Of a stretch of 64,000 nucleotides of DNA, positions 14,548 to 53,045 are shown piece after piece (position 1 is the stretch's first letter; each line of letters opens with the position of its first letter). Source of the stretch: Candidatus Moanibacter sp. GTDB lineage: Bacteria > Verrucomicrobiota > Verrucomicrobiia > Opitutales > UBA2987. A model generated the notes under the pieces. The model worked only from the letters and a program-made list of their open reading frames with translations, had not been told where the DNA came from and searched no databases. The DNA lies in NCBI GenBank assembly GCA_965215885.1, contig CBDCEW010000104.1:128001-192000 (forward strand). The letters run 5' to 3'. A program made the translations under genes and the position numbers.

Positions 14548-15549
14548 ATGAGAAAGAAACGATTGAAGATATCAGGTCGTTGCGCTGTATATCATTGCGT
14601 GACGCGAACGGTGAATAAGGAACGGCTCATTGATGATGTCGCTAAGGAAGTGCTGCGAAAGCAACTGTGGCAGATTGCTGATTTCAGCGGAGTTGAGGTG
14701 ATTACTTACTGCGTTATGAGTAGTCATTTTCACGTTCAAATTCGGGTGCCGGATCGGGAGCGAGTGAAGGTTTCGGACCAGGAACTGATGCGCAGGTATC
14801 GGGTGCTGTATCCGAGGCCCACACCATACCAACAGGCTGACGCCAAGGTATTGGAGATGAAACTGTTAGAGAACGGAGACGAGGCAGCCGCATTGAGGAA
14901 ACAGCTCCTGGAACGTATGCACGACGTCTCGCAGTTTATGAAGACGCTGAAGCAGCGGTTCTCAATCTGGTATAATCGCACCCACAATCGCGTTGGGACG
15001 CTTTGGAGCGAGCGATTCAAGAGCACATTGGTGGAGGGAACGGACGCGGCGATACGGATTACAGCAGCCTACATCGATTTGAATCCGATCCGCGCGAAGA
15101 TCGTAAGCGACCCTAAGGATTACCGATGGAGTGGGTATGGCGAGGCGATGGGAGGTTCAGTAAGAGCGCGCCATGGGATCGAAGAGAGCATACGGCGCAA
15201 CCAAAGCGAGGAGTTGAACTGGAGAAAAGCATCGAGCGAGTACCGCAAGCTCCTCTACTGCAAAGGAGCTTCACCGTCTTCGAGTGGAGGGACGACGATA
15301 CCAGACGAGAAATGGAGAAATGTGATACAGAAAGGTGGAAAAGTGCCAGTGGCGGCCGCTTTGCGCTGTCGGGTACGCTATTTCACCGATGGGGCGGTGC
15401 TCGGGTCAGAGGAGTTCGTGCAGGAAATATTTCAGGAATTCAAGAGTCAGTTCGGAACCAAGCGAAAGAGCGGACCAAGGCGAATGAAGGGGAGTGACTG
15501 GGAAGGCTTGACGGTGTTGAGGGACTTGAGGCGGGAAGTGTTTGGATAG
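14548..15549 (+). mobile_element. HUH (Y1) transposase, REP-associated tyrosine transposase (RAYT)-like, long form
   Basis: YHCVTR, YCVMSSHFHV (HUH), LWSERFKS, AYIDLNPIRA, DPKDYRWSGY; probable start ATG at 14548 rather than 14281. Confidence 0.85.
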
Positions 15550-34664: not shown

Positions 34665-35880
34665 CTAGTACCTTGTATCTTTCATAATTTCGGATATAAC
34701 CGTCTTAGTTTTATCCGTGCATCCTGAGTGGTAGACTGCCAATCAACCTTGGCATTTCGGTTATTTCGATCGTGTTGCCAAGCTGCCACTTCGTTACCCA
34801 TCTGTTTGATTTCCGGGATTCTGTGATTGAGGCATTGGATTTGGAGTGTGCTTAGTTCAATCTCTGCGATATTGAGCCAGCTTCCGTGTTTTGGGGTGTA
34901 GTGGATCTCTAGACGCTCAGCCAATCTTCTCGCTTCGGATGGTTCGAAGGTTTCGTAAAATGAGGCCACACTATGAGTATTGAGGTTGTCCATGACCAGC
35001 TTGATCCTGGTTGCTTGAGGATATTCTTCTTCGAGCAGGTACTTGATAAATTGAGCCCATTCGCATCGTCTTCGCCGTTTTGTGATGAGCACATAGCGTT
35101 TGCCCCCGAGCGGTTCGACGGCCATGAAAATTTCGGCTACTCCTTTGCGCACGTATTCATGATCGACGAGTTGAACTCGCCCAAGGGCAGCCGCAACAGC
35201 CTGATGGACTTCTCCAACCAGCTGCTTGCACGATTCATCCATGCAGACCAGAGGATACTCCGCATCATAGGGCAGATGGTAGAGTTCCAGAATGTCTTCC
35301 ATGCAAGCCACAAAAGCCGCATTGTGCTTAGGAGGTATCTTCCAATATTTGCTCAGGTGAGGCTTAAATTCGTTTTTTTAGCGTTCGTTGAACGGTCATC
35401 GCCGAAACTTTCGGTGCAATCTTTAGTTCGACCACTTTTTCAGCCAGGAGCCGCACCGTCCATCGGCTCCTGCCTTTAGGGGGCGCAGAGCACGCCAGTG
35501 CCGTAAGGCGCGCCTCAAAGGCTCCGTCGAAGGTGACTTTGGGTGGTCTCGATCTGGGCCTCGGACCCAGCGCAGCCTCCAGGCCCTCTTCTACAAAATG
35601 CTTCTTGATGTGCTCAATGCTTCGCGATGTCACCCCAAGGCCCTGGGCTACATCGGCTACTCTCCAGGGGGATCGCTCCCCGACGCTGTCGCATAAAAGC
35701 AATGCTCGCGCGTGAATATACTTGCGCGCGGTACCTTTGCCCTTTTTCGTCAAAGTCTCCAGCTCCTCACGCTCCTGATCAGTTAAGGTTACTCGATATC
35801 GATTTGCCATCCCAATAAGATGGAAAAACACAATTGGAACGTCAACTAGATACGAAATACTTTCTGTTACAAGATACTAG
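34665..35880 (-). mobile_element. IS630-family element; transposase split in two ORFs (35364-35810 and 34682-35311) joined by a -1 frameshift
   Basis: HTH ORF (WTVRLLA) plus DDE ORF (MDE, MDN, HYTPKHGSWLNIAEIE); A7C slippery site at 35372-35379; ends CTAGTACCTTGTA / TACAAGATACTAG. Confidence 0.92.
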
Positions 35881-35883
35881 CTT

Positions 35884-37800
35884 GACCTTATCCGAAAAGC
35901 TACTGATTGGCCGCAAAGAGGCGCAAAAGGCGCAAGAAAAACTTGAGAAAAATCATTTTTTGGCTTGATAAAAAGTGTCGCAACATGCTAGTGTTTAACA
36001 ACCTAAGATTAAGAAAGGAGTTAAACATGCCAACATGTGCGACAGAGGAGAACAAAAGCGATAAGACGCCCCTTAGCAACCTCATTCTGCCGGTTCCAGA
36101 CACGGATTTCCGTGATTTTCTGGATGAAGTTGAAGAATTGGCCGGGTTCGCGGCGCAAATCATCGAGGCGATCGAGAAGGATCTGGACGCCCATGCGCGT
36201 GAGAAGAAGAAACTTCGATTGGAAGATCGCAGGTTCTTTGAAGGGCGCACAGCGGAGCTGCCGGAGCTGGACATCGAGGAGGAGAATATTCTGGCTGCTG
36301 AATTGAATCTTGGGGCAGGCCGGCCGCGGATGCCGGCTTATGCGGTATACGTGTTCGTGATGATTCGAGGGTTTCTGGGTTCGTTGACCACGAAACCGGC
36401 ACGGCGGTTTGTGCGCGAGTCGATGAGCTTGTACGGATTTTTGCAGAGCGGGGGACTGAGAATGCCGGCGGTGACGACGATTCTGGAGAACGTGAACCTG
36501 GTCAGCCATACGACCCGCGAGTTGATCTTTGATAAACAGATTGGGTTTATCCTCCAGGAGCAATGGGACGATTTCGGGAAGCTGACGATCGACAGCACCT
36601 CGGTGAAAGCAAACAGCTGCTGGCCCACCGATGGGAAGATTCTGAGCGGTCTTTTGATGCGGGCCAATCGTTTGGGTCAGAAGTTGCATGTCTTCGGGCT
36701 GGAGGATTTTCGCAAGGGATGGGTTGGGCGTTGGCTGGAGGAAATGGACAAGCTGGAGTTTCAGATTTGTCTGGCCGCGGGCAAACCGAAGTCGAAGGGC
36801 AAGCTGAAGAAACACTACCGGCGGTTGCTCAAGCGGGGCCGCAAGGCGGCCGACTCACTAACGGGGGAACTGAGCCATCTTGAAGAGGGCCTGTCGATGG
36901 ATTCACTGCCTCCCACTCGCCGGGAGCTTCTGGAGCGGGCATTGAGCCAGATCAGGGGTGATATTGCCGACGCCAAGCGGGTTGTTGAGTATGCTCATGA
37001 TCGGGTGTTTCACGAAAAGAAGCTACCGTCCACACAGAAGGTCCTGAGCCTCTCGGACGGATCGGCGGCCTACATCAAGAAGGGCAGCCGCAATCCAGTG
37101 ATCGGGTACAAGCCACAACTGGTTCGCAGCGAAAACGGTTTTGTCACCAGCCTGATCGTACCGCAAGGCAACGCGGCAGACTCCATTGAGCTGGCGCCGG
37201 CCATCGGCGATTCGATCAAGCGCACCGGTGTCATTGCTGAACTGGTCAGCACCGATGACGGATATGCTTCGGCGAAGGGACGCAAGGAGGTGCTGAGCAT
37301 GGGGGTAAAGCAGATCAGTATCAGTGGGGCGAAGGGCAAGAAGTTGACCACCCCCGAGGACTGGGAGAGCGAGGCGTATCGCGAGGCACGCCGCGATCGC
37401 TCCGCAGTGGAGTCGCTGATGTTCACGATTAAAGATGGATTTGCCTTTGGCGAACTCGGCCGCCGCGGCATCGATGCGGTAGGCGATGAACTGCTCGAGA
37501 AGGTTCTGGCCTACAACTTCTGCCGCATCATACTGATGAAGAAACGCCGAGGGGAGGAACTGGAACAGGCAGCCTGAATCTGACCGCTTTGAAGCTCAGA
37601 GAAAAAAGCACCACGGGATGAGTATGCCTCCAGACAGCGGCAAATATACGTATTGTGCAGCAAGCCACGCCGATGGCCGCTCAATACCTGCTCATCGGCA
37701 GCGCCGGCAGCCTAAAACCCGAAACCTGCCAGCCATAGGCTGGTCCGCCCGTGGCGGAGAACCTTAAACCGCCCGCTCGAAAGGCTTTTCGAATGGGGTC
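35884..37800 (+). mobile_element. IS5/ISNCY-like element; DDE transposase 36027-37577
   Basis: GRP, TIDSTSVKAN..WPTD, DDGY, RSAVESL motifs; TIRs GACCTTATCCGAAAAGC / GCTTTTCGAATGGGGTC; AAGGAG RBS before ATG 36027; family assignment tentative. Confidence 0.8.
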
Positions 37801-37917
37801 TAGATACTGGATTTAGCTTTCGTGCTTCAACTGTTAATCACCGTAGGAAACAGTGGTATGGCTGTACGCATCAGCGAGGCCAAGCATACTTTCCTGATGT
37901 TTGAATCTCGCTGGGTT

Positions 37918-38450
37918 CAATTCCCCGAAGCTTGCTTCGGCTTTAGTGGTATATGATGATAGGGGATGGGAAGTCGTTACATCCACAAAAGTCACAATGT
38001 ATCGGTGCTGATGTATCATCTGGTGTGCGCAGCGAAGTATCGTCGAGTTGTGATGAGTGAGCGTGTGGACGAGGTTCTGAGGGCAGCCTGCATCGAGATT
38101 GAAAAGCGCTGGGAGATTGTCTTCTTGGAAATAGGATTAGATCGAGACCATGCACACTTTCTGATCCAGTCGGTGCCGGCTTACAGTCCGACGAGGATCG
38201 TTACGACGGGGAAGAGTGTAACTGCGCGCGAAGTGTTTGCGAAAGCACCGGAGGTGAAGAAGCAACTGTGGGGCGGAGAGTTCTGGGGAAAAGGGTACTT
38301 CGTAAACACGGTGGGGCAACACAGCAGCGAGAGCGTGATCGCGGCCTATATCGCGAATCAAGGTGAGGAGGCAAATTACCAGCGATTGCATAAAGGGCAG
38401 TTGGAGTTGGGATTATTTTGAAAATGCCTCGGGGCTTGCCCCGAGGATCT
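37918..38450 (+). mobile_element. tnpA: IS200/IS605-family element with TnpA only (CDS 37966-38421)
   Basis: YHLVCAAKYRR, DHAHFL (HUH), LWGGEFW..GYFV.TVG, YI; hairpins CCGAAGCTTGCTTCGG (37925-37940) and CCTCGGGGCTTGCCCCGAGG (38427-38446). Confidence 0.92.
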
Positions 38451-39021
38451 TTACTACTTGATGTATCGCGGCAGCCAGCCGAATTCTAATCGGGGAAGTA
38501 TGATCTGGTCATAATCGGATCGGGTCCGGCCGGTGAAAAGGAAGCTTCCGTCGACCATTTTCGGTGAGGATTATCATCGCCACCGGGTCCTATCCCTTCC
38601 ATCCGCCCGAGGGACCTTTGACATCGGGCAGAGATAGTCCACGACTCGGATACGATCCATTGACTTACCTGGTCCATCTGTGTGGTCGGACGGCCGGTGA
38701 AATCTGGAGGGCGAAAGCTGACGAATTTTCGACATCACGATTGGAACTGGATGACTGCCTGCCCTTTGGGATTTAGACAGTTCCCGAGTTATCAATGGTT
38801 GGACCGAGCGAGCCGCCAGGGAGAAGAACGATTATTGTACTGGCAGGGCTCAAGATCAAGGAATGAGAGCTTTAATTGTCTTCAAGCAGGAACGCAGGAA
38901 AAGAGATTATCTAATTCCTCACCTGTAATGTGTGTAGAAGATAGCTGTGTGAGTTTTCGTAGAGTAGGAGGGAATTTCATCGAATTCGGGGAAGAGATCT
39001 GATCACCTGCGCTTACCTCGA

Positions 39022-39187
39022 TAGAGTCGACTTCGCCTGGCGCGGAGCGCGCTTGTAACGCAATGATGAACATTCCCAAGAGCACTTCTAGCGGACGGCG
39101 TAGTGCGGTATGCGGCGCTTTTGGGAATACTCATCTATGCGTTACTCCACTCTGCCGATACGGCAGAGCGGGGCGAAGTGGACTTTA
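39022..39187. repeat. Structured ~160-nt repeat, copy 1 (four-way-junction fold)
   Basis: AGAGTCGACTTCGCC / GGCGAAGTGGACTTT closing stem, two short hairpins, ~31-bp central stem. Confidence 0.85.
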
Positions 39188-39862
39188 CCAACGCCCAGCT
39201 TTCAAGTTCCAATTCTCCGTGGTTCTCTGTTCTAACTCGAAGAGGCTTGAGCCTTAAGAAGGAATTTCTCTACCTGCGTATAGAACCCGTTGATGCTCAA
39301 ACAATTTCGGTGATCTTCAGAAAGCAATGTCTAACTGCGAGTTCTAATTATCACTTCCTTCTGGTCCGTTTTCTGACGGCTCCTAATCCGATGTACTGCC
39401 GAGTCCCTGCGTGCCGGGATGGGAATCCCTGGCTTCATTCAATCCGCGGTTTTCTCGGATCAGCGGGAAACTGCCTCTTCATCCGTGGTACTGCGGAGCC
39501 ATCCTGGGCTATTCTCCCTCTTCATCCGTCTCCGTTCCTGATCCGTTGCTTTCAATGCTCTCACAGTCCCCATTCGTTGTACATGCTCCATAGCTTTAGC
39601 GTAGGAGGGCCCTTCATTTCCCGGCCTGCCGGGAAACTCATTCTTTTGGTTGCGACTACGCTGCGCTAGGTGGCTCTGTGGCCCCTCTTTCCGTTTCATC
39701 TGTCAGCATTCCAGTTTGGTTTTGGCCGAAAGCTGCTGTAGTAAGAAATCATTCCTGCTTTCCTTTACATCCTGAGCAGCGTCGAAGGGCCTTCCTTATT
39801 CAAGAAAATCTTCAATCTCTTCTCCGTTTCTCTCCGTTACCTTCTGTTCAATTCTCTATTCA

Positions 39863-40541
39863 ATGACCTCAGAAACCAAGGAGGCTCTTTGTGCGCATCT
39901 CGCTCAGTTTGTGACGGAGAATAAACTCGCGCGTATGGAACGGGTAATCGGGTCGCGGACGAGAGCGGTGACGGTTGTCTGGAGGACCTGTTTCAACCTC
40001 ACAATGCGAGTGCTGCGATTCGTACCTGTGAATGCTTCGGCGTGCAGGATGTGCACATCATTGAGAATCGTTTCGCCTATCAGTTGGAATCCCGATGTGG
40101 TGATGGGGGCGAGCAAGTGGGTCGACCTTTACCGCTACAGCGGCGAAGGTGAGGAACACACCACGGCATGCTTTGAAGGGTTGAAGCGGAGTGGTTACAG
40201 GATTGTGGCGACTTCCCTCAGGGACGATTCAATTCCCCTCGAGGAGTTACCCGTCGAACAGGATATCGCGCTCTGTTTCGGCACTGAAGAAGAGGGCCTA
40301 AGTGAAAGAGCGGAGCGCCTCGCCGATGTATCCGTGAAGATCCCGATGCACGGATTCACCCAGAGTCTGAATATCTCGGTGAGTGTGGCCGTATGCCTCT
40401 ACGAACTCTGCCGGCGAATTCGGCGAGCGCGACGACTGGCAATTATCCCGGAAGGAGCGTCTCGACGTTCAGCTCTCCTGGTTGAGAAGCGCGGTGAGGA
40501 ATGCCAAGCTTGTCGAAAGGAGGTTTCTTGTGAGAGAATAA
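39863..40541 (+). pseudogene. TrmH/SpoU-family RNA methyltransferase with three frameshifts
   Basis: FGTEEEGLS and IPMHGFTQSLNISV SPOUT motifs; LEDLFQPHNASAAIRTCECFG lies in another frame (about 39979-40086), as does the natural C-terminus. Confidence 0.85.
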
Positions 40542-40966
40542 TCCTACCACGGATGGGCACGGATAAGAGAGAGAGAGTTTCCCGCTAAACACGCGAACTT
40601 GAGGTAACGACTGGATTTTTGGCCACAGAGCGACACAGAGAACCACGGAGCGGCACAGAGAGCGCTGACGCGGAGTATACGGGAAAACAGGTGAGTCGCC
40701 TTCGCCTGTCACTTCTGTACGGCAGAGTGAAAAACACTCCCGTATTTACGAGAGCGTTTTCAATTGGCTCGAGGCTCAATTTCAGGTCGGGCTCTCGCAA
40801 ATGCTGCTTTGAGCGTTTTATCCGCGCTCCGCGCGAGGCGATGGCGACTTCCTTTTTTCCCTCCCGTGACCACGGTATCTGCTTTTTCCGTTCATCCGTT
40901 GCCCTCTTATGATCCGCTGGTAATCTCCTCATCCGTGCCCATCCGTACTATAATCCGGCAGAACCT

Positions 40967-43340
40967 CAGAACTCGCTATCATGCGGGTTGGCGGGCAGGG
41001 GGCAATCGCAGATACAATTCCCGGCTTTTAAGAGCTAAAGAAAACGGTAGGCTTCATCTTCGAACCATCAAATTCGAAGAAAAATGGAGAAACCTACCGT
41101 CAAAGAAGAGACCTTCTTACAGTGCATCCTTGGAGTGGACAAGGGTAATCCCTCGATCACGGTCTATCGGGATCTGAGGGAAGGCAAACTGCACGTCTAT
41201 TACGGGCATGAGCTTTTTGAAGTCGTAGAGGACGATCGGGAGCAAGTTGAATTCAAGCTATTGGAGGGGCGCCTCTACAATGCGGGGTTGAAGAAAGGGC
41301 GCTTAGAGAAGCAATTTGAGGTTGACCCCAAAACGATGAAGCGGTGGGGGGAGGCGCTTCAAAGCGGAGATGCCGAGACCTTAGCGCGAGTGCTGGCGGG
41401 ACGCAGCGCTCATCGCAAATTGACGAGGGAAATCCGGAGTTTTGTGCGGGTGCGCTTCGGGCAGATCTATGGGGAGAGTCGGTATGGCTACAGCAAGAAG
41501 ATACGGGGGGAGATCGAGGAGGTGTTCGGAGTTAACCTCAGTGGGGAAACTTTGCGCCCTGTCTTTAAGGAGCTTAAAGAGGCCCGGGCAAAGGAGGCCG
41601 AAGCCGAGAGGGCGCAAAATCGGGAGACTCCCTGGGATTGCCCGGAGGACTCGGGGAGGGACGAACAGGAGCAAGAAGCAGAAAATAGCCCCGAAAGCGA
41701 AGGGGACAATCGCAAGGGGTCTCCCGATTTTTCGAGGGAGAGCTCCGAAGCGGTGCAATGGTATCGGCACCTGGGAGTACTTCTGTTCAGTGCCGCGCTC
41801 AGAGAAGTCGCTCAGATTGATCGCGAAGAGGGCTGGCTTTTGAAACAATGGGTGGCTTGCGGGTTGTTGGCCGCGGTCAATATCGAGCAGAGCAAACTGC
41901 TCGATCTCGAAGACCTGCAAAAACTCATCGGGCGAGTCCTGTATACCCCCTATCTGCAACGCCAAAGCCTTAGCGCCCTGGCCGATGAAGGGCTTTTAAG
42001 AGAGATCCTCAGAGTGAACGCGAGGGGCCTGAATGCTTCGGATGAAGAGAGCTTTTATTATGATCCGCACACCAAACATTACACCGGAATGAGCAAGGTG
42101 CTGGCGGGATGGTGTCCGGGTATCCGTCTGGCCGACAAAGCGCTCCACAGCGATTTTATTCATACCCTCAAGGGCTATCCGGTCTATTTTGCGAGCACTG
42201 ACAACTATGAGGATATAAGGGAACGGTTTATCCCCAACTGCGAAGCGATGCTCGAGCTGGTGCAGCTGCCGGCTGATAAAAAGGTGAGTATTTACGTGGA
42301 CCGGGCGATCGCCGCGGAGTGGTTTTACGAAGCCATCGTGGAGCACCCTCAACTCGAAATCATTACCTGGGAAAAAGGTTACAAGGCCAGCGCCCAGCCC
42401 CTCCAACGGATCGACGGGCAGTTGCGCCTGCAGCGCGCGCGCAACCATGCCGAAGATCTCCAGGAGTATCATCTTCGCTATCAGCGGGGCCCCTGGAAGA
42501 AAAATCCTCAACTGGTGCAGTGGATCGTGGAGGCGACCAATCCAAAAAATCGAACCATTACCGTGAGCATCCTGGCGACCGATCAGCAGGCCCGAAATGA
42601 AGAGGTAATCAAAGGGATGTTCAGTCGCTGGATTCAGGAGAATGACTTCAAATACCTCGATAAGCACTTTGGGATTAATCAGATCACCTCTTATCGCACC
42701 GTCCACTACAAGCGATTAGCCCAACACCTTGAGGACAAGCAGGAGAAAAGCGGTGCCGCCAAAGCCCTCCTGAAGCAAAAACAGCAATGCACCGAAGAAT
42801 TGAAAAGACTGCTCCTGGCCGAGCATGCCCACCCGGGCAAAAGCGCCTCAAGGGGCGAAAAGATCCGTCGACTCGATCAGGCCCTCAAAGCCCTCCAACT
42901 CGAACTGGAGCAAATCGACACCGAATGCTCGAGGCTGCAGCGCCTCATTGATGAAAACTATGTCCGCCTGGACACCGCTAACAAGTCCCTCATGGATGCC
43001 TTGAAAATCTTCGCCCGTAACAGCTTCTACAAGCAGCTCGAACCCTTTAAAGCTCGCTACAACAACTATCGTGACGACCACGATCTGTTTCGCAATTTGA
43101 CTCACAGTGACGGCGTTCTTATAGAGAGGGGCTGTGCGGTCGAAGCGCATTTATTCCCCACCGCAACTTATCCCCCTCGGGTGCAGGCGGTGGTGCTTGA
43201 GTATCTGCAAACTCTCAATCAGAAGCCCTTACTGATGCCCGACGGTTCAGGCCGAAGAATCATCTTCCGACTGGGCAAAAAATCGGGATTTAAACTTGCG
43301 ATTGCATAGTGCCTTTAGAGGGGCAATATAGTGAGGTCTG
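40967..43340 (+). mobile_element. 2374-bp insertion sequence with a 741-aa putative DDE transposase (41084-43309)
   Basis: TIRs CAGAACTCGCTATCATGC vs CAGACCTCACTATATTGC; 5-bp target duplication AACCT (40962-40966, 43341-43345); empty homologous site at 47121-47140; candidate catalytic motifs YYDPH, VDR, RWIQENDFK. Confidence 0.88.
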
Positions 43341-43576
43341 AACCTTGTTTTTCTAGCAAGTTTTTGCGTAGAAGAGGTTGTTGGTATTCAATAAACTGCA
43401 GTCGACCCGTCGTCGCTTCGCTTTGCCGAGGCAGGCAAGGTTTGGGACAAGGTTCGCGACCCGTCGTCGCACTGCTTTGCCGAGGCAGGCGAGGTTACCC
43501 AAGGGAAGTAGGAGTTTCCTTCTGCATTCGCGTCCATCTGCGTTCATCTGCGGTTCTCTTCTTCTTTTTTGGTTGC
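43341..43576. repeat. Dispersed ~200-nt intergenic repeat, copy carrying two 30-nt mini-insertions
   Basis: Collinear with 47131-47302; diverged inverted relatives at about 59145-59303, 46660-46730 and 55360-55386. Confidence 0.85.
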
Positions 43577-43577
43577 G

Positions 43578-44219
43578 CTAGGTCATCCGTGGTAGATTCA
43601 TTCTCTGTTTTTCTTCTTCCATAGCGGGATGCTCTGCGATCATCCCTAACGCTTTTCTCAGGAGGGTTTTTCCCGGTTCCACGCGGGGCCATGGAGAGGC
43701 CCCGGAGGGGTGGGGGAGGGGAATCGTGTCGAAAAGATGCTTGTCGTAGGTGCATCGGAAACTGCGGCCGACGATTGCATCGAGACTCGAGTATTTCATA
43801 AATTGCGTAATGGCCAGTCTGCCGACTGGAATGACTAATTCCGGTCGCAGAATTTCCATCTCGGCTTTCAGCCAGCGGGAGCAGTTGGAAATCTCTGTCC
43901 GATCCGGAACGCGGTCACCGCCCTTCGGCTTCTTGCCGGGGAAGCAGCGGCAGACAGCTGCCATGTAAATGCTGGAACGAAAATCTTCCTCACTGAGTCC
44001 ACATGATTCCTTGAACCACTGGAAGAGCGTCTTCCCCGCGGTCCAGGCAAACGGGCGTTGCAACCGGGGTTCCTTTTCACCCGGCGCCTGCCCCACCAGC
44101 AGCACCTTGCTCACGATGGCCCGTCCCGTCACCACCGGGCTCTGCATATTCGGGCATAAGGCACAGGCACGGAGGGCACTGGTGTGTTGAAGGATAGATT
44201 CTCGGCGATTCATGAACAT
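43578..44219 (-). CDS. Uracil-DNA glycosylase-superfamily protein
   Basis: C..C..C cluster, VGQAPG, VCRCFPGK, PLPHPSG. Confidence 0.88.
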   Translation of the reverse strand: MFMNRRESILQHTSALRACALCPNMQSPVVTGRAIVSKVLLVGQAPGEKEPRLQRPFAWTAGKTLFQWFKESCGLSEEDFRSSIYMAAVCRCFPGKKPKGGDRVPDRTEISNCSRWLKAEMEILRPELVIPVGRLAITQFMKYSSLDAIVGRSFRCTYDKHLFDTIPLPHPSGASPWPRVEPGKTLLRKALGMIAEHPAMEEEKQRMNLPRMT

Positions 44220-44504
44220 AAGTTAGGAAAAGGGTTCAATCATGACTGAATCGGGGCCACAGAGCGACACAGAGATGCACGGAGGCACCTAGCGCAGCAA
44301 ATCCGCAACCAAACTGGTAGGTGCTTCCGTGGAGAAGAGAATTGAACAGAAGGAAACAAAGAGAACGGAGAGGGATGATGGGTATACAATGTCTGTTTAA
44401 AACTACGTTTTCTCTCTACGTCGCTAGGGGCGTTCTCAGTCGAGTGGCAGGAACGGTTGCATCGATCGCGAAAATAGGAGTTCGAACATACGATAGAACG
44501 AATT

Positions 44505-44663
44505 AGGAGTCGACTTCGCCTCGCGCGCAGCGCGTCTGAAACGCCAAGAAGAGAATTCCCCAAAGCGCCCCCTTTCGGCGCAGAATGCAGGTGCGCTTTT
44601 GGGAATTCTCTTCTTGGCGTTTCTCCATTCTGCCAAACGGCAGATTTGGCGAAGTCGACTCCT
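44505..44663. repeat. Structured ~160-nt repeat, copy 2 (best preserved)
   Basis: Perfect 16-bp closing stem AGGAGTCGACTTCGCC; CGCGC-GCA-GCGCG; 23+7-bp central stem; TCTGCC-AAAC-GGCAGA. Confidence 0.9.
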
Positions 44664-44752
44664 TCCGACTTTCAGTCTGTGTAACTTAAGTTCTCCGTGG
44701 TCCTCTGTGGTGCTCTGTGACCCCTCTTTTGCCTTTCTACTTTCCTTATTTC

Positions 44753-45334
44753 TTATTCGTTAAATGAAAAGAAGGCTTCCTCGGTATACTGCGCTCCTTC
44801 AGAAGAGAGTTTGCTCGAGAAGAGGGTGAATCCTTCCACCTTGAACGGCGCTGTTTCGAAATTCCGGTTATCCCGAACAAACTGTTTCACCGCGCCCGGT
44901 TTTGCGCGTGCCGTCCGCGCAATCGTCACATGCGGGTGATAGGCCCGCGTCTCAGCTTCGACGCCAAGAGCTACCAGGGTGTCTTCGATCTGTTTTTGCA
45001 ATTGAAAGAGGCGAGGATGCCCCTTATCGTGTCCAACCCAAACGATTCCAGGACGGCCACGGCGCGGGAAGCAACCGACCTCCTTCACCGGCAGGATGAA
45101 GAGCTCAACTCGAATTGGCGAGAGGAGCTCAACGATTCGCTCAGCCAATTCCGCATCGACGTCGCCGATGAACCGCAGAGTGAGGTGGAGGTTATCCTCC
45201 GGAACCCAGCGAAACTCGGGAAGCTGGTGCCGTATGCGTCGGATGGACGATTTCACGTGGTTGGGGGCGGAAATCCCGATGAAGAGGCGTTTCTCTTCCC
45301 GCTCTCTTGTAACTTGGATTTTGTCGTCTGTCAT
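44753..45334 (-). CDS. thpR: RNA 2',3'-cyclic phosphodiesterase (2H phosphoesterase)
   Basis: RLFIGI, NLHLTLRFIG and YHPHVTIAR (two HxT motifs). Confidence 0.92.
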   Translation of the reverse strand: MTDDKIQVTREREEKRLFIGISAPNHVKSSIRRIRHQLPEFRWVPEDNLHLTLRFIGDVDAELAERIVELLSPIRVELFILPVKEVGCFPRRGRPGIVWVGHDKGHPRLFQLQKQIEDTLVALGVEAETRAYHPHVTIARTARAKPGAVKQFVRDNRNFETAPFKVEGFTLFSSKLSSEGAQYTEEAFFSFNE

Positions 45335-45500
45335 GGCTTCCTGGTTTTAGAACACAGAGATTGAGCTGAATAAGGAAGGCAGGAAAGCAGGAAAAGAGAA
45401 TTGAAGTCCGGCGAGCCGGGAGAAACAGAGAGCAAGGGCACGCGCAATGTTATCTGTAAGATTGCGCCCGGCCTTCTGACTCCTTTTACTCTTCTGAGCT

Positions 45501-46444
45501 ATGCTTAAGGAACTCATCGATACACCCAAAGGTTGGGATGCGAACTCGATTGATGCGCCTGAATGCTGGATTTATTCCCTCTCGCAGGAGGTTTTGTCGG
45601 AGCTTGATTCGGCCTTAGCACCGGGCACTGGAAAGGTTACTCCGATTGAAGATTTAGCATTGTCCAAGTCCAGTGCGCGGTGCTGCCACAGGAATTTTGC
45701 CCCGGTAACGGAAGCACTGGATTCCGGCCGAGGTTTCGCCATCATTGATCGTGTTCCGGTCGACCGCTATACGCTTGATGAGGCCAAAGCGGCCTACTGG
45801 CTAATCGGTCAATCGGTCGGGTTTCCGATGAAACAGAACATGCGCGGGACACTTCTGTATGACGTCCGTGATACCGGCGCCGATGTCCGAAAGGGCGTCC
45901 GATTCTCGGTTACCAACTCCGAATCGACTTTTCATAATGACAATGCATTCGGTGCGACTATTCCCGACGTCGTGGGTTTGCTCTGTATACGGACAGCCCG
46001 GTCGGGAGGCAGGAGCCAACTGGTCAGCGCTTACGCAATTCATAACGAATTGCTGAAAAATCATCTCGAGGTTCTCGAAACTCTTTACGAGGATTTCTGC
46101 TTCGACTGTCGAGGAGAACATGCTCCCGATGAACCTCCCGTTTCGCAGACACAGGTTTTCACTGGGACGGACAGGATTTGACCAACCGATACCTCCACTA
46201 CTACATCCAAATCGGTCATGAAAAGATGAAACTGCCTCTCGATTCGAGGCAGGAATATGCCTTGGAGGTACTGGAGGAATTGCTGCGTCGCCCGGAATTC
46301 TGGGTGGAGTTCGATCTTAGACCCGGCCAGATCCTGTTTGTGAACAACCGAAGAATTTTGCATAATCGGACAGCGTTTCAGGACTTTCCGGATCCCGAAC
46401 GCCGTCGCCATTACGTTCGCCTGTGGCTTAACTGGCGGCAGTGA
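45501..46444 (+). pseudogene. TauD/TfdA-family dioxygenase, frameshifted near 46158
   Basis: FHND, VVGLLCIRTARSGGRSQLVS in ORF 1; NNRRILHNRTAF..RRHYVRLWL in ORF 2; one missing T in a T-run would restore the frame, so a sequencing error is possible. Confidence 0.82.
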
Positions 46445-46908
46445 TTCCGTTTGGCGGACTCTACGAGATTGAGAGATGAATAAGGAAGGAACCGCAGATG
46501 GACGCGAATGGACCCGTCTCCGTCCTCCGGGCTTCGCCGTGGCATGCGCGAATTTGGGAGGAAGACCCCGCGGATTCGAGGACACAGCGGGTTAATTCGA
46601 GAGGGAGTAACTAACGGATCAGGAAAACAACGGATTGTGAACAATTGGACCACAATTCTTTGAATACCATCCTCTTAAAATTCACCAAACAAAATACGTG
46701 TTCAGTCAACCAAGTTCTGATGGATAGTAGTGCAAATTGCTTTTGAAAAAAGAGGGCGGCAAGAAGATGCGATAGTTAAATTTCCGTGGAAACGGCGCCA
46801 GCCAGATAGTCATCGGCGTCCCGGATCGGGGAGTGAGAAGTAACCGCGGAATGAGGTTTTAATAAGGAAGGCAGGAAAGCAGGAAACTGCCCATACTATA
46901 GGCCGAGG

Positions 46909-47070
46909 TAGGAGTCGACTTCGCCTCTCCGCCATACGGGAGAGCCTGAAACGCGATGAGGAGCTTTCCCAAGATCGCGACTGCATTTTAGTCCACGAAT
47001 AGCGCTCTTGGGAAAGTTCCTCTTCGCGTTTCTCGACTCGCATAAGCGAGTTTGCGAAGTCGACACCCTA
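46909..47070. repeat. Structured ~160-nt repeat, copy 3
   Basis: GGAGTCGACTTCGC / GCGAAGTCGACACC; CTCTCC..GGAGAG; ~31-bp central stem; ACTCGC-ATAA-GCGAGT. Confidence 0.88.
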
Positions 47071-47120: not shown

Positions 47121-47302
47121 AATCCGGCAGAACCGTGTTTTCCGAGCTATTTTTTGCGCAGAAGAGGTTGGTATTCAATAAACTGCAGTCGACAAGGTTT
47201 GGGACAAGGTTCGCGACGAGGTTACCCAAGGGAAGTAGGAGTTTCCTTCTACATTCGCGTCCATCTGCGTGCATCTGCGGTTCTCTTCTTCTTTTTTGGT
47301 TG
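47121..47302. repeat. Dispersed intergenic repeat, empty copy (no IS, no mini-insertions)
   Basis: Matches 40952-40966 joined to 43346-43576. Confidence 0.85.
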
Positions 47303-47804: not shown

Positions 47805-48185
47805 ATGCAGTTTCGGTATTACCTGACCGATCGGCCGCGCTTCGAACATTGGATCGAAATGGCGGAATTCTCCGGTTACAAGGCCCGGAAAATGGCTGAA
47901 ATATACGGCGTCAGTCTCCGCACCCTGGAGCGCTATTTCGAGGAAGACCTCGCCCGAAAGCCCCAGGAATGGCTCAACGAACAGCGCATGATCACGGCCC
48001 GGGAAATGCTCGAATCCGGGAGATCAATCAAGGAGACAGCCGCTGACCTCGGCTTTAAGCAGACAACTCACTTTCACCGCGAATATAAGCGGGTGCATGG
48101 GGTAACGCCGTCGATCTTCCAAAGGCATACCGCAGTCGGTGAGCGGAGTAGGAAAAGAAGAGGAACCGCAGATGAACGCGAATGA
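47805..48185 (+). CDS. Stand-alone AraC-family HTH regulator
   Basis: GVSLRTLERYF...R...A..ML..G.SIKETAADLGFKQTTHFHREYKRVHGVTPS. Confidence 0.88.
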   Translation: MQFRYYLTDRPRFEHWIEMAEFSGYKARKMAEIYGVSLRTLERYFEEDLARKPQEWLNEQRMITAREMLESGRSIKETAADLGFKQTTHFHREYKRVHGVTPSIFQRHTAVGERSRKRRGTADERE

Positions 48186-48284
48186 ACGCGAAGCGATATT
48201 ACCGTCTATTCGCTGTTCCTACCCCATCCGAACCGCTAATGAAACCAAATTGACGCCAATACTTCTGTGTTTGTGATTTCGCGT

Positions 48285-48692
48285 TCATTCGTGTCCATTC
48301 GCCGTTCCTTCCAGCACCACTCTTTTCCACTCCAATTTTGCTCGTTTGAAATTTAGGATCAATCCGACTTTCAGCCCCGTAATCTTCAGATAATTGAGCA
48401 TTTGTCCCATTTCGTGATCTCCGATTTGCTCAAAAACTTTGGTGTCTACCACGATCTGGTCATACACGATGAGATCGGGGATGTACTCGCCGACGCTCAC
48501 GCCCTTATAAAGCACATCGTATGTCTGTTGTTGGCTGACTGGTATATCCCTGAATCCAAACTCCACAACGAGCGCATTCTCATAAGGTTTCTCCAACAAC
48601 CCATGACCGAGCTCATTTAGCACCTCCATGGCGCATCCTACAATCTGGAATGCTTCCTCCTTTAAGGGATATCCGCGTTCATTTGCGTCCAT
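48285..48692 (-). CDS. GxxExxY protein (PD-(D/E)XK nuclease-like), copy 1
   Basis: LGHGLLEKPYENAL (GxxExxY), YIPDLIV..IVVDTK, QMLNYLKITGLKVGLILNF. Confidence 0.92.
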   Translation of the reverse strand: MDANERGYPLKEEAFQIVGCAMEVLNELGHGLLEKPYENALVVEFGFRDIPVSQQQTYDVLYKGVSVGEYIPDLIVYDQIVVDTKVFEQIGDHEMGQMLNYLKITGLKVGLILNFKRAKLEWKRVVLEGTANGHE

Positions 48693-48832
48693 TCGCGGTT
48701 CCTTCCCCTTCCGAAACGCTAATCAACGCTATTCGACGCAAATATTTCTGTGCCTCTGCGTTCGCGTTCATTTGCGTTCCTTCGCGGTTCTCTTCTGTAG
48801 TGCGATCCCCAGCCCGGGCTCATACCAGGGGC

Positions 48833-49876
48833 TCAGGGGCTGAGTATTGGCCCGGTATACTGGTATCCCCCTGAGTCGAAGGGATCTTCTGCCATAAGCA
48901 GCGGTGTATCGAGATCAAGGATACTGATTCCGCCAAGCCCCAGCACCAGAGAAAACGAGCAGCCCATTGCTACTCGGGTCTCGATCATTCCACCGATCAT
49001 CAGACCGATGCCGTGCGCCTTACAGAGAGTCGCAATGTCTATCGTTTCAAACAGACCGCTCTTGGTGACCTTCAGATTTATTATATCCGCTGCCCCTTTC
49101 TGAATAACTCGCAACGCATCTTCCAGAGAAAAGACAGACTCGTCCGCTGCGACCGGAAAAGCGGAGTTTTCACGAACCTTTTTTAATCCTTTGATATCAA
49201 ACCGATCGACCGGTTGCTCGAAAGCTTCCACAGTCAGATCGATCGCCTCGATCTTTCTGGCGAATGCAATCGCCTCTGTTGGTGTATAACCTTGGTTCGC
49301 GTCGATAATCAGGGATATTCCGGGATAACGCTCCGCCAAAGCGATGACGCGAGCGGCATCCTCCTCAACATCTAATCCAACCTTTAATTTTCGAAACCCC
49401 TTTTTAGCGATCTCTAGTGATTCTTCGACGCCTCTAATCGGTATTGTGATGTCAGTCTCATAATTTCTGACATCAGCGCCACCCCAGAGCGCCCACAATG
49501 GAATCCCGCTCCCGCGACTGAACGCATCGACAATTGCTGTCTCGAACCCACAACGTACTGCCGCGAGATGAGGAATCCGGGATCGAATCTCCTTCGAAAT
49601 CTTTCGAAAGTTTGTTACCGAGCTTCCAATTACGAATTCCGCAAGGTCCTTCGCGGCGCTGAGGCTGTCCTCTCGGGTCTCTTTGGTCAGTTCGGGAAAG
49701 GGCGCTATCTCACCGTACCCGATGCACCCGTTCTCCAGTATCAAGGTAACTATTAGACTCCTCGCTACCGTTACTTCCCCTTTAGCGATTGTAAAGGCAT
49801 CGATTAGCGGCACTTCGATCGGTGAAATCTCAACATCGGCGATCGCAAATCCGCTGTCTGTACTGCGTTGTTTCAA
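48833..49876 (-). pseudogene. Dipeptide (L-Ala-D/L-Glu) epimerase, enolase superfamily, degraded copy
   Basis: DANQG, FEQP, ADES, INLK, DLD motifs; two short in-frame deletions relative to copy 2 and an 8-nt duplication creating a stop before WYEPGLG. Confidence 0.8.
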
Positions 49877-50418
49877 AACGAAATCGTCATGGAAGAAAGA
49901 GCCAATGAAAAACGGAACCGAGATTACCAGAGCGTGAACGCAATGCCAACCAGATCCTCATCGAGGTCCTGCGTGGGAGCTTGAGAGAACCAGAAATGTG
50001 AGCTGAATAAGGAAAGCAGGAATGCAGGAAAAGAGGGTGTCCCGGAGCGGAGCCATTTGGAGAATAGGGGTCGACTCTGTTGTAATCCCGCTCAGGTTCC
50101 AATTGTATCAGGTCAAATTGTAACGATTGATTCCGTTGCAAATTCCTTCTCGTCCGTAATTGCCCTGTGAAGTTGAAAGCTTTCCTGCCTTCCTGCTTTC
50201 CTTATTCATCAATCTTCTGTTCATCGATCCTCGCGTCTCGACAATATTCTTCGAACTGAAACCAGACTCATCATTCCAGAGTTCTATCATCATGTCACGG
50301 CGGAGATCCGCATCGGCGGAGAGCAGACGAATCATTCACTCACTTCCCCTCACTTTGCGTCTTAGCCGCTTTGCGTGAGGCCTCTATCACGTTACGGCGC
50401 AGTTCCGCATCGCCTAAA

Positions 50419-50736
50419 CGGAGACAGATCCACTCTTTTCCGCCGTCAGCTTTCCGCACTCTCGAGCGCCGTTTTCAGGAGGCCTCGCCCGAAAACCCCA
50501 GGAATGGCTCAACGAGACAGATCCACTCTTTTCCGCCGTCGCCTCCGCATCTCGAGCGCCGTTTTCAGGAGGGCCTCGCCCGAAAACCCCAGGAATGGCT
50601 CAACGAACAGCGCATTATGCCGGCCCGGGTGATGCTCGAAAGCGGGAAGTCAATCAAGGAGACCGCAGCCGACCTAGGTTTTAAGCAGACGACCCACTTT
50701 CACCGGGAATATAAGCGGATGCATGGGGTGACGTAG
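50419..50736 (+). pseudogene. AraC HTH remnant with internal ~94-bp tandem duplication
   Basis: 3' half nearly matches 47930-48110; GAGACAGATCCACTCTTTTCCGCCGTC...CCCCAGGAATGGCTCAAC occurs twice; premature TAG. Confidence 0.8.
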
Positions 50737-51011
50737 TCGATCTTCCAAAGGCATACCGCAGTCCGTGAGCGGAGCCGTTATAGAAGAGGAACCGCAGATG
50801 CACGCAAATGAACGCGGATTGCTTCTAAGAGAGGAGGACGAGCACAATGGAATCTCGGAAACGTGAAAAAATAGGGATGGAACCGCAAATGGACGCAGAT
50901 GAACGCGAATGAACGCGAAGCGATATTACTGTCTATTCGCTGTTCCTTCCCCATCCGAACCGCTAATGAACGCAAATTGAAGCCAATACTTCTGTGTTTC
51001 TGATTTCGCGT

Positions 51012-51455
51012 TCATTCGTGTCCATTCGCGGTTCCTTCCAATACCACTCTTTTCCACTCCAATTTTGCTCGTTTGAAATTTAGGATCAATCCGACTTTCA
51101 GCCCCGTAATCTTCAGATAATTGAGCATTTGCCCCATTTCGTGATCTCCGATCTGCTCAACAACTTTGGTGTCTACCACGATCTGGTCATACACGATGAG
51201 ATCGGGGATGTACTCGCCGACGCACACGCCCTTATAAAGCACATCGTATGTCTGTTGTTGGCTGACTGGTATATCCTTGAATCCAAACTCCACAACGAGC
51301 GCATTCTCATAAGGTTTCTCCAACAACCCATGACCGAGCTCATTTAGCACCTCCATGGCGCATCCTACAATCTGGAATGCTTCCTCCTTTAAGGGATATT
51401 CGCGTTCATTTGCGTTAATCTGCGGTTCTCTTATGGAGTCCCAGTCCGGGCTCAT
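51012..51455 (-). CDS. GxxExxY protein, copy 2
   Basis: Nearly identical to 48285-48692; the equivalent ATG is ATT, nearest upstream in-frame ATG at 51455. Confidence 0.88.
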   Translation of the reverse strand: MSPDWDSIREPQINANEREYPLKEEAFQIVGCAMEVLNELGHGLLEKPYENALVVEFGFKDIPVSQQQTYDVLYKGVCVGEYIPDLIVYDQIVVDTKVVEQIGDHEMGQMLNYLKITGLKVGLILNFKRAKLEWKRVVLEGTANGHE

Positions 51456-52797
51456 ACCATGGGCTGAGTATTGGCCCAGTATACTGATATCCCCTTGAGT
51501 CGAAGGGATCTTCTGCCAGAAGCAGCGGTGTATCCAGATCCAGGATACTGATTCCACCAAGCCCGAGAACGAGAGAGAACGAACAGCCCATCGCCACCCG
51601 GGTCTCGATCATTCCACCGATCATCAGACCGATGCCATGCGCCTTACAGAGAGTCGCAATGTCTATCGTTTCAAATAGACCGCTCTTGGTGATCTTCAGA
51701 TTGATGATATCCGCTGCCCCTTGCTCAATAACCCGCAATGCATCTTCCAGAGAAGACACAGACTCGTCGGCTGCGATTGGAAAGGCGGAGTTCTCACGAA
51801 CCTTTCTTAGCCCGTCGATATCGTAACGATCGACCGGTTGTTCGAAGGCCTCCACAGTTAAATCGATCGTCTCCAATCTTTTCGTAAAAGCAATTGCCTC
51901 GGTGGAAGTATATCCCTGGTTCGCGTCAATAATCAGGGATACGCCAGGATAACGTTCCGCCAAAGCGATGACGCGAGCGGCATCCTTCTCGATATCCAAT
52001 CCCACTTTTAACTTAAATTTGCGAAACCCCTTTTCGTGCCACTTTTCAGCGATCTGGAGTGAATCGCCAACATCCCTGATCGGAATAGTGATGTCGGTCT
52101 CGTGATCCCTGACATCAGCGCCACCCCAGAGCGCCCACAGTGGCAGCCCGCACCCGCGACTGAACGCATCAACAATTGCCGTTTCAAATCCACAGCGTAC
52201 CGCCGCAAATCGCGGAATCCGTGATCGGATCTCAGTCGAAATATTTCGAAAATAAGCTGCAATGTTCCCGATTACGAAATCCGCGATGTCGTTGGCGGCG
52301 TTGAGGCTGTCTTCCAGGGTCTCACCGGTCAGTTCGGGAAACGGCGCTATCTCACCGTACCCGATGCACCCGTTCTCCAGTTTCAGGTTAACGATTAAAT
52401 TCCGCGCCACGGTTACTTCCCCTTTTGCAACGGTAAAGGCATCCATTAGCGGCAGATCGATCGGTGATACCTCAACATTGGCGATCGTGAAGTCACGAAT
52501 CGCCGCAGATTCCCCGAATTCCGCCCTGTCTGGAGGGGAAGTTAGCTTTTTACGGGTGTCGCTCAAATTGTCCCCCACTACATCGAATTCATCATTGAAG
52601 AAAGAGCCAACCAAAAACGGGACTGAGATTGTGAGAGCGTCGTGTAAAGCTAAATGAACGTCCTGAATTTTCTGAAGGAGTCGGGCGAGGGTCATGCCGT
52701 CGATTTCGATTCTGGTGCAAAACCGCTCGATTTGAATACCGCGACTACGTTCTTGCGAACGCGGAGGGTTTTTCACCAGAATCCAATTTTTGGACAA
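51415..52797 (-). CDS. Dipeptide epimerase (enolase superfamily) with N-terminal extension; start uncertain
   Basis: FKLKVG (KxK), DANQG, FEQP, ADES, INLKITKSG, DLD, PGLG. Confidence 0.88.
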   Translation of the reverse strand: MSKNWILVKNPPRSQERSRGIQIERFCTRIEIDGMTLARLLQKIQDVHLALHDALTISVPFLVGSFFNDEFDVVGDNLSDTRKKLTSPPDRAEFGESAAIRDFTIANVEVSPIDLPLMDAFTVAKGEVTVARNLIVNLKLENGCIGYGEIAPFPELTGETLEDSLNAANDIADFVIGNIAAYFRNISTEIRSRIPRFAAVRCGFETAIVDAFSRGCGLPLWALWGGADVRDHETDITIPIRDVGDSLQIAEKWHEKGFRKFKLKVGLDIEKDAARVIALAERYPGVSLIIDANQGYTSTEAIAFTKRLETIDLTVEAFEQPVDRYDIDGLRKVRENSAFPIAADESVSSLEDALRVIEQGAADIINLKITKSGLFETIDIATLCKAHGIGLMIGGMIETRVAMGCSFSLVLGLGGISILDLDTPLLLAEDPFDSRGYQYTGPILSPWYEPGLGLHKRTAD

Positions 52798-53045
52798 ATA
52801 CAGCGGCCGGTTTGCCGAAGTAGGGCGGCAGTAGGCGGCAAATGATCGTACCGATTGCTGCTTTTTCGTCGAGACTTTCAGCTACGAGTGTCAGGTGTCG
52901 CTATACGATAGTATTTGTCGCCGATAGATACTGAATTCATGTTGTGTGGCTGGGAAATTCAGGATTCGATATCTGGATCTAAACCAGTATTCTTGGCTAC
53001 TTGAGGCCGTGGGAATGGAAAAATAGAAGCAATTAGGAAAAGGTC

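Follow-up and report, generated by a model that had tools for sequence, protein, structure and literature searches.

A non-coding four-way palindromic repeat of a Candidatus Moanibacter lineage, set between repeat arms of a class shared with GxxExxY nuclease genes

We describe a short, multi-copy DNA element from Candidatus Moanibacter sp., found in a 64,000-nt stretch of contig CBDCEW010000104.1 (the window). On balance we favour, with some reserve, its interpretation as a non-coding, lineage-specific repeat, likely to be passive cargo inside arm mosaics that belong to a system linked to GxxExxY nucleases. That this is a DNA-level, non-autonomous-looking repeat family, as an earlier note on the window had suggested, is supported; the family shows real covariation in its stems, DNA-type loops and, by way of its flanking arms, a link to GxxExxY genes.

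The element consists of two inverted halves, each comprising a P1 arm, a small hairpin and a 29-nt P3 arm, which flank a spacer of 25-27 nt (31 of 34 elements). Together they make up a four-way palindrome of 156-178 nt with P1 terminal inverted repeats of 15-29 bp. The three copies first reported (copies 1-3, Table 1) are present and fold as described, into a closing stem, a short hairpin, a stem of about 29-31 bp and a second short hairpin, on both strands and with RNA and DNA parameters, the exception among 12 folds being the minus strand of copy 3 as DNA, in which the P3 tip pairs otherwise. The compensatory strings quoted for them were found in the sequence; the closing stem is a perfect 15 bp in copy 2 only and has mismatches in copies 1 and 3. 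As single-stranded DNA, copy 2 folds with -67.9 kcal/mol (z = -12.8), equalled by none of 200 shuffles. The z value for copy 4 is -5.5. The c(GNA)g triloops, noticed earlier in two hairpins, are found in all 18 type-a hairpins, with all four bases represented at N, and part of PMC13037366 presents this loop as a DNA mini-hairpin motif. A mini-hairpin of about 10 nt, found free at 173 intergenic sites with a loose motif, forms part of both P1 arms at the 10 loci with a long P1. A protein-coding reading was rejected, since each frame is open in at most 19 of 38 copies and codon periodicity is absent.

Table 1. Features of the window related to the four-way element (CM, covariance model).
Feature	Position	Strand	Remark
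Copy 1 (a+b)	39022..39187	+	CM score 112 bits
Copy 1 P1	~39023-39037/39172-39186	+	
Copy 1 hairpin a	39039-39051	+	GGA loop
Copy 1 P3	39056-39084/39116-39144	+	
Copy 1 hairpin b	39150-39168	+	
Inward-pointing arm right of copy 1	39215..39231	-	two units; none found on left
Inward-pointing triple arm beside copy 4	40624..40660	+	
Copy 4 (a+b)	40692..40851	-	missed in the earlier note
Inward-pointing arm, other side of copy 4	40890..40903	-	module A, 38 nt from element
Left arms of copy-2 mosaic	44258..44370	+	all facing element
Copy-2 mosaic left triple arm	44258-44284	+	
Copy-2 mosaic terminal hairpin module	44289-44313	+	
Copy-2 mosaic inner left arm	44355-44370	+	
Copy 2 (a+b)	44505..44663	+	
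Copy 2 hairpin a	44522-44534	+	GCA loop
Copy 2 P3	44539-44567/44594-44622	+	loop inverted relative to most copies
Copy 2 hairpin b	44628-44645	+	
Copy-2 mosaic right inward-pointing triple arm	44693..44719	-	
Copy-3 mosaic left inward-pointing arm	46864..46885	+	period-8 type
Copy 3 (b+c)	46909..47070	+	
Copy 3 hairpin b	46927-46944	+	
Copy 3 P3	46949-46977/47003-47031	+	
Copy 3 hairpin c	47037-47050	+	
Copy-3 mosaic right inward-pointing triple arm	47253..47279	-	
GxxExxY gene 48285-48692 framed by same-class inward arms	48167..48697	-	PF13366, PD-(D/E)XK fold
Second GxxExxY gene, between inward-pointing arms	50961..51424	-	

The small hairpins are of three types. Copies 1, 2 and 4 carry a and b and copy 3 carries b and c, so that hairpin b, P4 in the other copies, takes the P2 position in copy 3; what had been taken for covariation of P4 between copies 1 and 2 and copy 3 is thus a different hairpin module, not substitution. 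Nor is the reported co-orientation a property of the family, since copy 4 is in minus orientation. In the window this copy has a damaged 3' P3 arm, which is intact in contig C27, an allele of the region; over the copy-4 stretch the public contigs X1 and X4 show 5 letter differences and 12 gaps relative to the window, the same totals as for C27. Hairpin pairs in 34 elements are a-b (19), b-c (14) and a-c (1), and are never matching (0/34), against 37% matching pairs expected under random pairing, an expectation to be read with the kinship, and hence non-independence, of the copies in mind. One a-b pair, in which b is deleted, had been scored a-a by the script and was reassigned by eye. With small hairpins that are always unlike, the four-way shape is forced. 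The missing matching pairs could reflect poor assembly of long palindromes.

Covariation in the stems is strong, with changes on both sides in 26 of 50 base pairs against 13.7 in shuffles, and it looks like one-step copying of one arm onto the other. The P3 arms are 90% alike within an element and 72-74% alike between elements (34 elements), and of 33 private variants (in 33 elements) 11 occur in both arms, six of these being transversions. Homogenisation is only partial, since an arm's own partner is strictly its closest relative for 12 of 68 arms (14 ties; a closer arm elsewhere for 42). The interior and the P3 loop invert independently, and among 11 loci flank, hairpin order and loop orientation are found in all four possible isomers. 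Copying of one arm onto the other can produce covarying stems in the absence of selection (PMC8794818). Of the earlier description of the element as structure-selected, what stands is the suggestion of a filter, to which the loop motif, the length of the spacer and the unlikeness of the hairpins point; the covariation itself is explainable by copying. G-T pairs are mildly in excess on one strand in the b-c class (18 versus 7 distinct, p = 0.04, in one of two classes), which fits strand-specific folding either as RNA or as DNA, and show no such excess in the a class (16 versus 20).

A covariance model search extended the family well beyond the first three copies, to 41 loci in the genome, four of them on C27. 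All 41 are intergenic, none overlapping a gene called by our own gene caller, and they represent about 33 unrelated sites with unrelated neighbours, the genes adjoining other copies varying in size and strand. At 25 tandem sites the element has the same orientation as the neighbouring genes in 11 and the opposite one in 14; 12 copies are sense and 14 antisense to incoming transcription. Convergent gene ends are not preferred (8/38 versus 23% of long gaps). There are tandem and IS-associated duplicates (C80, C100, C27), and in the split copies on C92 and C49 the interruption is an unrelated IS that has ends of its own.

As judged from sequence searches, true copies appear to be confined to one lineage. 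BLAST found the element in none of 60 relatives, and the covariance model in none of five family genomes scored deeply and none of 150 phylum genomes (19 candidates scored per genome). At this same depth, 2 of 150 order genomes gave matches, neither taken as a true copy: in G127 the match (32 bits) is to a cluster of hairpins unrelated to the element, and in G063 it falls on a contig of 23.5 kb that shares 88-97% identity with the source genome, far closer than the G063 chromosome (about 65-77% over long matches), and is therefore read as a mis-binned sister lineage. A P1-pair pattern hit three stretches with unrelated folds in genome contigs (best 36 bits) and nothing in metagenomes, and a hairpin-b pattern hit 57 metagenome loci, none above 17 bits by the covariance model. 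One small-share run carries the label of a sponge metagenome, which we do not count as evidence on habitat.

Loci without the element also exist, and they look like deletions rather than insertion targets, ending as they do at microhomologies. At C78:15373 and C105:54195 a single member of a pair of 8-bp direct repeats remains, and it belongs to the palindromic arm; the loci C103:137680 and C41:27181 end at other microhomologies. In the flank tree, a weak one with 6 of 9 inner branches open, the element-less loci fall among filled ones. The flanks of the element are shared mosaic DNA, not unique targets; one mosaic end is sharp, and no clean mosaic insertion with target duplication was found.

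The element is linked to the GxxExxY gene family through its flanking arms, which accompany these genes both in this genome and across relatives. Inward-pointing arms made of 9-10-nt repeats are present at 39 of the 41 loci; the nearest arm modules (within 330 nt) face inward on both sides at 25 loci and on one side at 14, are missing at 2 and point outward at none. Intergenic DNA holds 233 arms, against 0, 0 and 0 in shuffles. Arms lie upstream of 7 of 9 GxxExxY genes and on both sides of 5, and no element part (P1, P3, a, b or c) adjoins any of the nine. Among 60 relatives, PF13366 occurs in 27 of 29 genomes with at least five arms and in 1 of 26 without arms; Y1_Tnp co-occurs with arms too (24/29 versus 4/26), and genome size confounds both associations. 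With a strict regular expression, 30 GxxExxY loci of relatives showed arms on both sides at 7, upstream at 9 and downstream at 11, the outward-arm controls giving 0 and 2. In GxxExxY arm cassettes, arrays of inward 9-10-nt units enclose a PF13366 gene or an interior without genes; the element mosaics have like arms, and differ in having the four-way palindrome as their interior. Other genomes contributed 177 kb from 59 loci with arms or GxxExxY genes, and none of the four long stems there has a four-way fold.

From the element's anatomy and its roughly 40 intergenic copies, the heterology of the hairpins, the isomers, the shared arms and the element-less derivatives, we infer the following course of events. 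The element would fold when single-stranded at the replication fork, where polymerase template switching may copy one arm onto the other, yielding 'compensatory' changes in one step, and may likewise invert the interior or the P3 loop. Copying that equalises the small hairpins would create a near-perfect palindrome of 65-85 bp, liable to be cut or deleted, so that only unlike pairs would survive and the four-way shape would be that of the survivors. Slippage between short direct repeats at the hairpin foot would delete the element. New copies would be made as complete mosaics, arms included, probably by the joint action of a GxxExxY nuclease on the arms and of host recombination, and halves would be reshuffled between mosaics at shared P1 and P3 arms. 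On this view GxxExxY would mobilise the element mosaics, the gene at 48285-48692 being a candidate trans-acting gene. Its protein has a predicted fold of the generic PD-(D/E)XK kind, and a sequence search found no relative of solved structure. A role as junction resolvase was considered and set aside: Hjc appears among the structural matches (Z 5.9, rmsd 3.4, 85 aligned), but folds of Cas4, restriction enzymes and exonucleases match equally well (Z 7.4, rmsd 4.3, 104 aligned for the best of them), which leaves no specific resolvase link. In a bolder and decidedly tentative version, GxxExxY would be the engine of an undescribed class of mobile DNA, its nuclease recognising the arms and cutting or resolving the folded interior, and the four-way element, DNA mini-hairpins included, would have evolved as its non-autonomous substrate, playing for a PD-(D/E)XK enzyme the part that a REPIN plays for an HUH transposase.

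Other origins have to be weighed against this. The element might be an enzyme-free by-product, born once when palindromes became nested and spread solely by ectopic recombination, segmental duplication and IS activity in a genome rich in repeats, with the GxxExxY arms as bystanders; the restricted range, the ordinary microhomology deletions, the tandem and IS-associated duplicates and the failure to find a clean target duplication agree with this, but the dispersal over so many unrelated sites, the sharp mosaic end, and a spacer length and GNA loop that arm copying does not repair make us consider it unlikely, if a real possibility. More doubtful is a degenerate REPIN or BIME moved by a resident RAYT, in which P1 or the small hairpins would act as REPs. 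In its favour, the genome contains GTAG-REP families of its own along with some 17 RAYT-like genes; of 214 REP-like sites, four have hairpin b behind GTAG; and among 79 arms P1 follows GTAG directly in 16, with GTAG no more than 20 nt away in 30. Against it, GTAG is missing from that place in the other 63 arms, hairpins a, b and c being preceded by the P1 arm instead. Also against the earlier idea of a RAYT substrate are the Y1/RAYT genes, none of which (0/18) is framed by arms or has an element part or arm within 250 nt (18 genes from 29 Pfam matches, using one of nine IS200 copies and excluding fragments and second matches to the same gene), and the arm-rich relatives G019 and G055, which have no Y1 match. 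The family is BIME/REPIN-like, sharing with REP, BIME and REPIN repeats an inverted doublet that folds together over a conserved spacer and many extragenic copies, yet it fails on GTAG and RAYT.

That a structured ncRNA or cis-regulatory RNA is under selection for its fold, an option raised in the earlier note, seems to us very improbable. Both the double-sided changes and the b-c G-T excess would suit it; nevertheless, orientation to genes and to incoming transcription is random, the interior inverts freely, the GNA triloop is a DNA motif in the part of PMC13037366 concerned, and no copies were found in the 150 order and 150 phylum genomes beyond the one mis-binned contig. Comparison with Rfam matched no curated family: the window gave no hit at gathering score, and at E <= 1 ten loci gave 20 matches below threshold, almost all of them to miRNA hairpins. 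In RNA run X12 no contig piece is listed over the elements and depth at copy 1 is 0, in contigs that can show neither level nor absence. An integron attC site or a retron msr-msd is scarcely credible and largely refuted. There is a long stem with conserved AAC/GTT-like ends, and closing stem and long hairpin are reminiscent of retron a1/a2, but judged by eye the ends do not fit the attC core consensus with its R boxes and the stems lack extrahelical bases, polarity after genes is not fixed, and none of 53 window proteins is a reverse transcriptase or integrase.

Passages of PMC8266576 and PMC3733652 describe E. coli BIMEs (REP pairs y-z1 and y-z2) as unlike inverted hairpins with a linker, extragenic and mosaic, and report a proposal that REP heterodimers escape cleavage by SbcCD and deletion. 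The element resembles them in having two unlike inverted hairpins and in being extragenic and mosaic, but it lacks a conserved GTAG, a flanked RAYT and a preference for convergent ends, and its hairpins are enclosed by the closing stem on one side and the 29-bp inner stem on the other. With the REPINs of Pseudomonas fluorescens SBW25, as covered in part of PMC3116915, it shares the inverted doublet, constant spacer length, compensatory hairpin changes and half-elements as decay products; its fold is instead a branched four-way one rather than a single hairpin, it has GxxExxY arms rather than a RAYT, and its losses are symmetric microhomology deletions, where SBW25 excisions are asymmetric. One-step double stem changes and spacer inversion recall the template-switch homogenisation of inverted repeats described in part of PMC8794818, from which the element differs in its two nested levels, P1 and P3, with four isomers as the result. 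Neither the repeat nor the GxxExxY arms were described in the texts reached by our literature search, although the family tables of PMC3733652 could hold a related motif. Among texts that mention GxxExxY, one deals with a gene beside a reverse transcriptase and another with a virus genome.

With its arms and four-way core, the element makes a well-defined DNA substrate, present in many copies, for probing the uncharacterised and widespread GxxExxY nucleases, and it offers a testable reason for the frequent pairing of unlike hairpins in bacterial palindromic repeats. It is also a clean natural example of textbook 'compensatory covariation' in a four-way fold that is likely to come from DNA-level arm copying, which is a warning for ncRNA screens. 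MITEs of the Correia, RUP and ERIC types are short, non-coding and dispersed, with inverted ends. The element is like them in all these respects and seems unlike them in that neither a target duplication separate from the arm nor a transposase sharing its ends was seen, the latter as judged from the split copies and, by eye, from the other half-elements. The terminal hairpin module, considered as a possible MITE end, was discarded, as it brackets both sides at 1 of 41 loci. A true MITE does occur in this genome, at C96, within a gene and with a 4-bp duplication.

The element is a real, DNA-level, REP/BIME-like repeat. The three stretches described in the earlier note as four-way-junction elements reproduce that fold on either strand, whether RNA or DNA parameters are applied, and for copy 2 the folding reaches z = -12.8 against 200 shuffles. 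The three copies had been presented as co-oriented; all are present, and a fourth found in the window (copy 4) lies on the minus strand. A profile built from the three copies, with one iteration, gave 48 matches in the 6.36-Mb genome, 41 of them near full length, and a covariance model from 24 copies returned the same set. Two partial copies and one deletion form are among the 41 loci kept for analysis, of which four lie in the window and four more on contig C27, an allele of the window region lacking the insertion sequence (IS) at 40967-43340. With our own gene caller, none of the 41 loci overlaps a called gene; the flanking genes are tandem at 25, convergent at 8 and divergent at 5, with 3 loci at contig edges, as compared with 54/23/24% tandem/convergent/divergent among gaps of at least 300 nt. 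Relative to incoming transcription, 12 elements are sense and 14 antisense.

Each element consists of two inverted halves. In every half, a P1 arm (15 nt long, though 10 loci have a 25-nt version) and a small hairpin are followed by a linker of 4-5 nt and a P3 arm of 29 nt; the spacer measures 25-27 nt in 31 of the 34 parsed elements (37 loci fetched, 3 dropped as tandem or partial). The small hairpins are of three types, which combine as a-b in 19 elements (one, with a deleted b, assigned by eye), b-c in 14 and a-c in 1, like pairs being absent. It is because unlike hairpins are unable to pair across that the four-way fold arises, and we infer that elements with unlike pairs are those that survive. 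The hairpin a loop is c(GNA)g in 18/18 cases, leaving out two window duplicates of C27 loci, with N being G in 11, C in 5, A in 1 and T in 1; PMC13037366 describes a DNA mini-hairpin formed only by GNA, its RNA counterparts being much weaker. A further 109 intergenic sites carry hairpin b outside the element, while P3 arms are nearly restricted to the element. A structure-only scan of intergenic DNA returned 364 long stems, 46 with an element-like fold, of which 34 were copies already known, 3 were diverged relatives whose P3 loop has collapsed (contigs C83, C98 and C105) and 9 were others.

Among the 24 short-P1 copies, 93.9% of cells are paired versus 84.8% after shuffling, and 26 of 50 pairs have changed on both sides versus 13.7 in shuffles (20 of the 26 in P3), counts of a kind that kinship inflates. 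The arms are 90% alike within one element and 72-74% between elements. Private variants, those confined to a single element, number 33; both arms carry the change in 11 of these, 6 being transversions, which have no wobble path. In the long P1, both arms carry a mini-hairpin plentiful elsewhere in the genome. Parts of the element flip: the 11 loci whose flank is polar show every one of the four possible arrangements of flank, hairpin order and loop orientation. Template switching is known to homogenise arms and to invert spacers (PMC8604942, PMC8794818), and this process may well be the source of the arm likeness. P3 mismatches number 37 G-T versus 30 A-C overall; by distinct events, they are 16 versus 20 in a-bearing elements; b-c elements, with 18 versus 7 (p = 0.04, uncorrected), show a mild strand bias, one that fits RNA and ssDNA alike.

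Like BIMEs and REPINs (PMC8266576, PMC3733652, PMC3116915), the element has unlike hairpins in inverted arrangement, a fixed spacer and a compensated stem. Unlike them, it departs in two defining features: GTAG precedes P1 in just 16 of 79 element arms, and no RAYT gene carries the element. The 214 GTAG-hairpin sites of the genome belong to several other families.

A larger mosaic has the element at its core, with flanking arms that are arrays of three units of a 7-mer with a period of 9-10, or of an alternative period-8 type. Intergenic DNA holds 233 arms, versus 0 in three shuffles. Within 330 nt of the element, the nearest arm modules face it from both sides at 25 loci and from one side at 14; they are absent at 2 and face outward at 0. 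Inward arm pairs number 53; the element lies inside 24 of them and a GxxExxY gene (PF13366) inside 2. The arms link the element with these genes, 7/9 of which have an inward arm upstream and 5/9 on both sides (two-unit test); arms or element parts were found at 0/18 Y1 genes. At 30 GxxExxY loci of relatives (strict regex), inward arms lie upstream at 9, downstream at 11 and on both sides at 7, the controls giving 0 and 2 outward arms (upstream and downstream) and 1/58 distant windows. At least five arms occur in 29/60 relatives (PF13366 in 27, Y1_Tnp in 24) and none in 26/60 (PF13366 in 1, Y1_Tnp in 4), in a comparison where kin are not independent and size is confounded; the 5/60 with one or two arms have PF13366 in 2 and Y1_Tnp in 1. 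Despite the size confound, PF13366 is present in 4/4 arm-rich genomes of at most 2.6 Mb and 1/7 arm-free ones of at least 2.6 Mb. The GxxExxY protein is predicted to adopt a generic PD-(D/E)XK fold (pLDDT 91.8) and might drive the spread of the element. Our literature search found no report on repeats at GxxExxY genes.

The same mosaic exists without the element at two loci, each retaining one of two 8-bp direct repeats contained in the palindromic P1 arms, and at two further loci the element has been lost at other microhomologies. The simpler explanation is loss by slippage at the foot of the hairpin; less probably, the two precise cases reflect insertion of the element into a palindromic target. 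In a one-flank tree with 6/9 branches open, element-less loci fall among filled ones, contig C105 grouping with C103 (100/100) and C41 inside the C19/C66/C80/C92 group (100/100). A sister-lineage contig binned in a related genome, G063, has a copy-3-type mosaic where contig C12 of the source genome has none, with ragged junctions. Mosaic ends are sharp on one side, and paired ends are rare.

Apart from that contig, the element was absent from the relatives searched, and a pattern search of public collections found none. The window stretch is present in public runs of several studies. Two public runs match C27 across copy 4, and therefore its damaged arm and the nearby window frameshifts are probably consensus errors or a strain variant.

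Coordinates of the element copies and neighbouring features (window positions unless a contig is named; G000, source genome)
Feature	Location	Observation
Copy 1	39022-39187	
Copy 2	44505-44663	
Copy 3	46909-47070	
Copy 4	40692-40851	
Second family with hairpin b	G000:C89:5367-5435; C101:86454-86522; C68:48260	Small; three-way fold, other closing stem
Mini-hairpin		13 nt; inserted in many other repeats and both long-variant P1 arms; about 110-200 G000 sites by motif
Terminal hairpin module	39645-39669; 44289-44313	158 sites genome-wide; outer end sharp; inward-pointing at all 15 element loci with one within 450 nt
IS, Transposase_29-like gene (741 aa)	40967-43340	Target duplication of 5 bp; C27 has the empty site; strong in RNA run contigs
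Second copy of this IS	C92:38785-41267	Within P3 loop of an element
High-copy DDE IS	35874-37822	Also inserted into element at C49
IS200	37900-38456	Complete; nine in genome
Long Y1 gene (about 330 aa)	14281-15549	About ten paralogues; no flanking hairpin repeats; upstream, a short motif in common; G063 has dozens of relatives
Short RAYT-like gene (185 aa)	G000:C105:427749-428054	GTAG-led hairpins on both sides
High-copy MITE of a different kind	G000:C96:15590-15775	Long inverted ends, 4-bp target duplication; within GxxExxY gene
Copy of this MITE	C10:1415-1605	Four-way-junction fold as well
Enolase-like gene, GxxExxY cassette, AraC remnant	48160-52800	Duplicated in tandem
Sister-lineage contig	G063:C2 (L080, L081)	23.5 kb, 88-97% identical to G000, in genome of another family; likely mis-binned
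SpoU methylase gene	39978, 40086, 40422, 40533	Frameshifted by small indels versus public contigs and C27; probably assembly errors
TauD gene	46155	Small indel versus public contigs, one run only; probably assembly error
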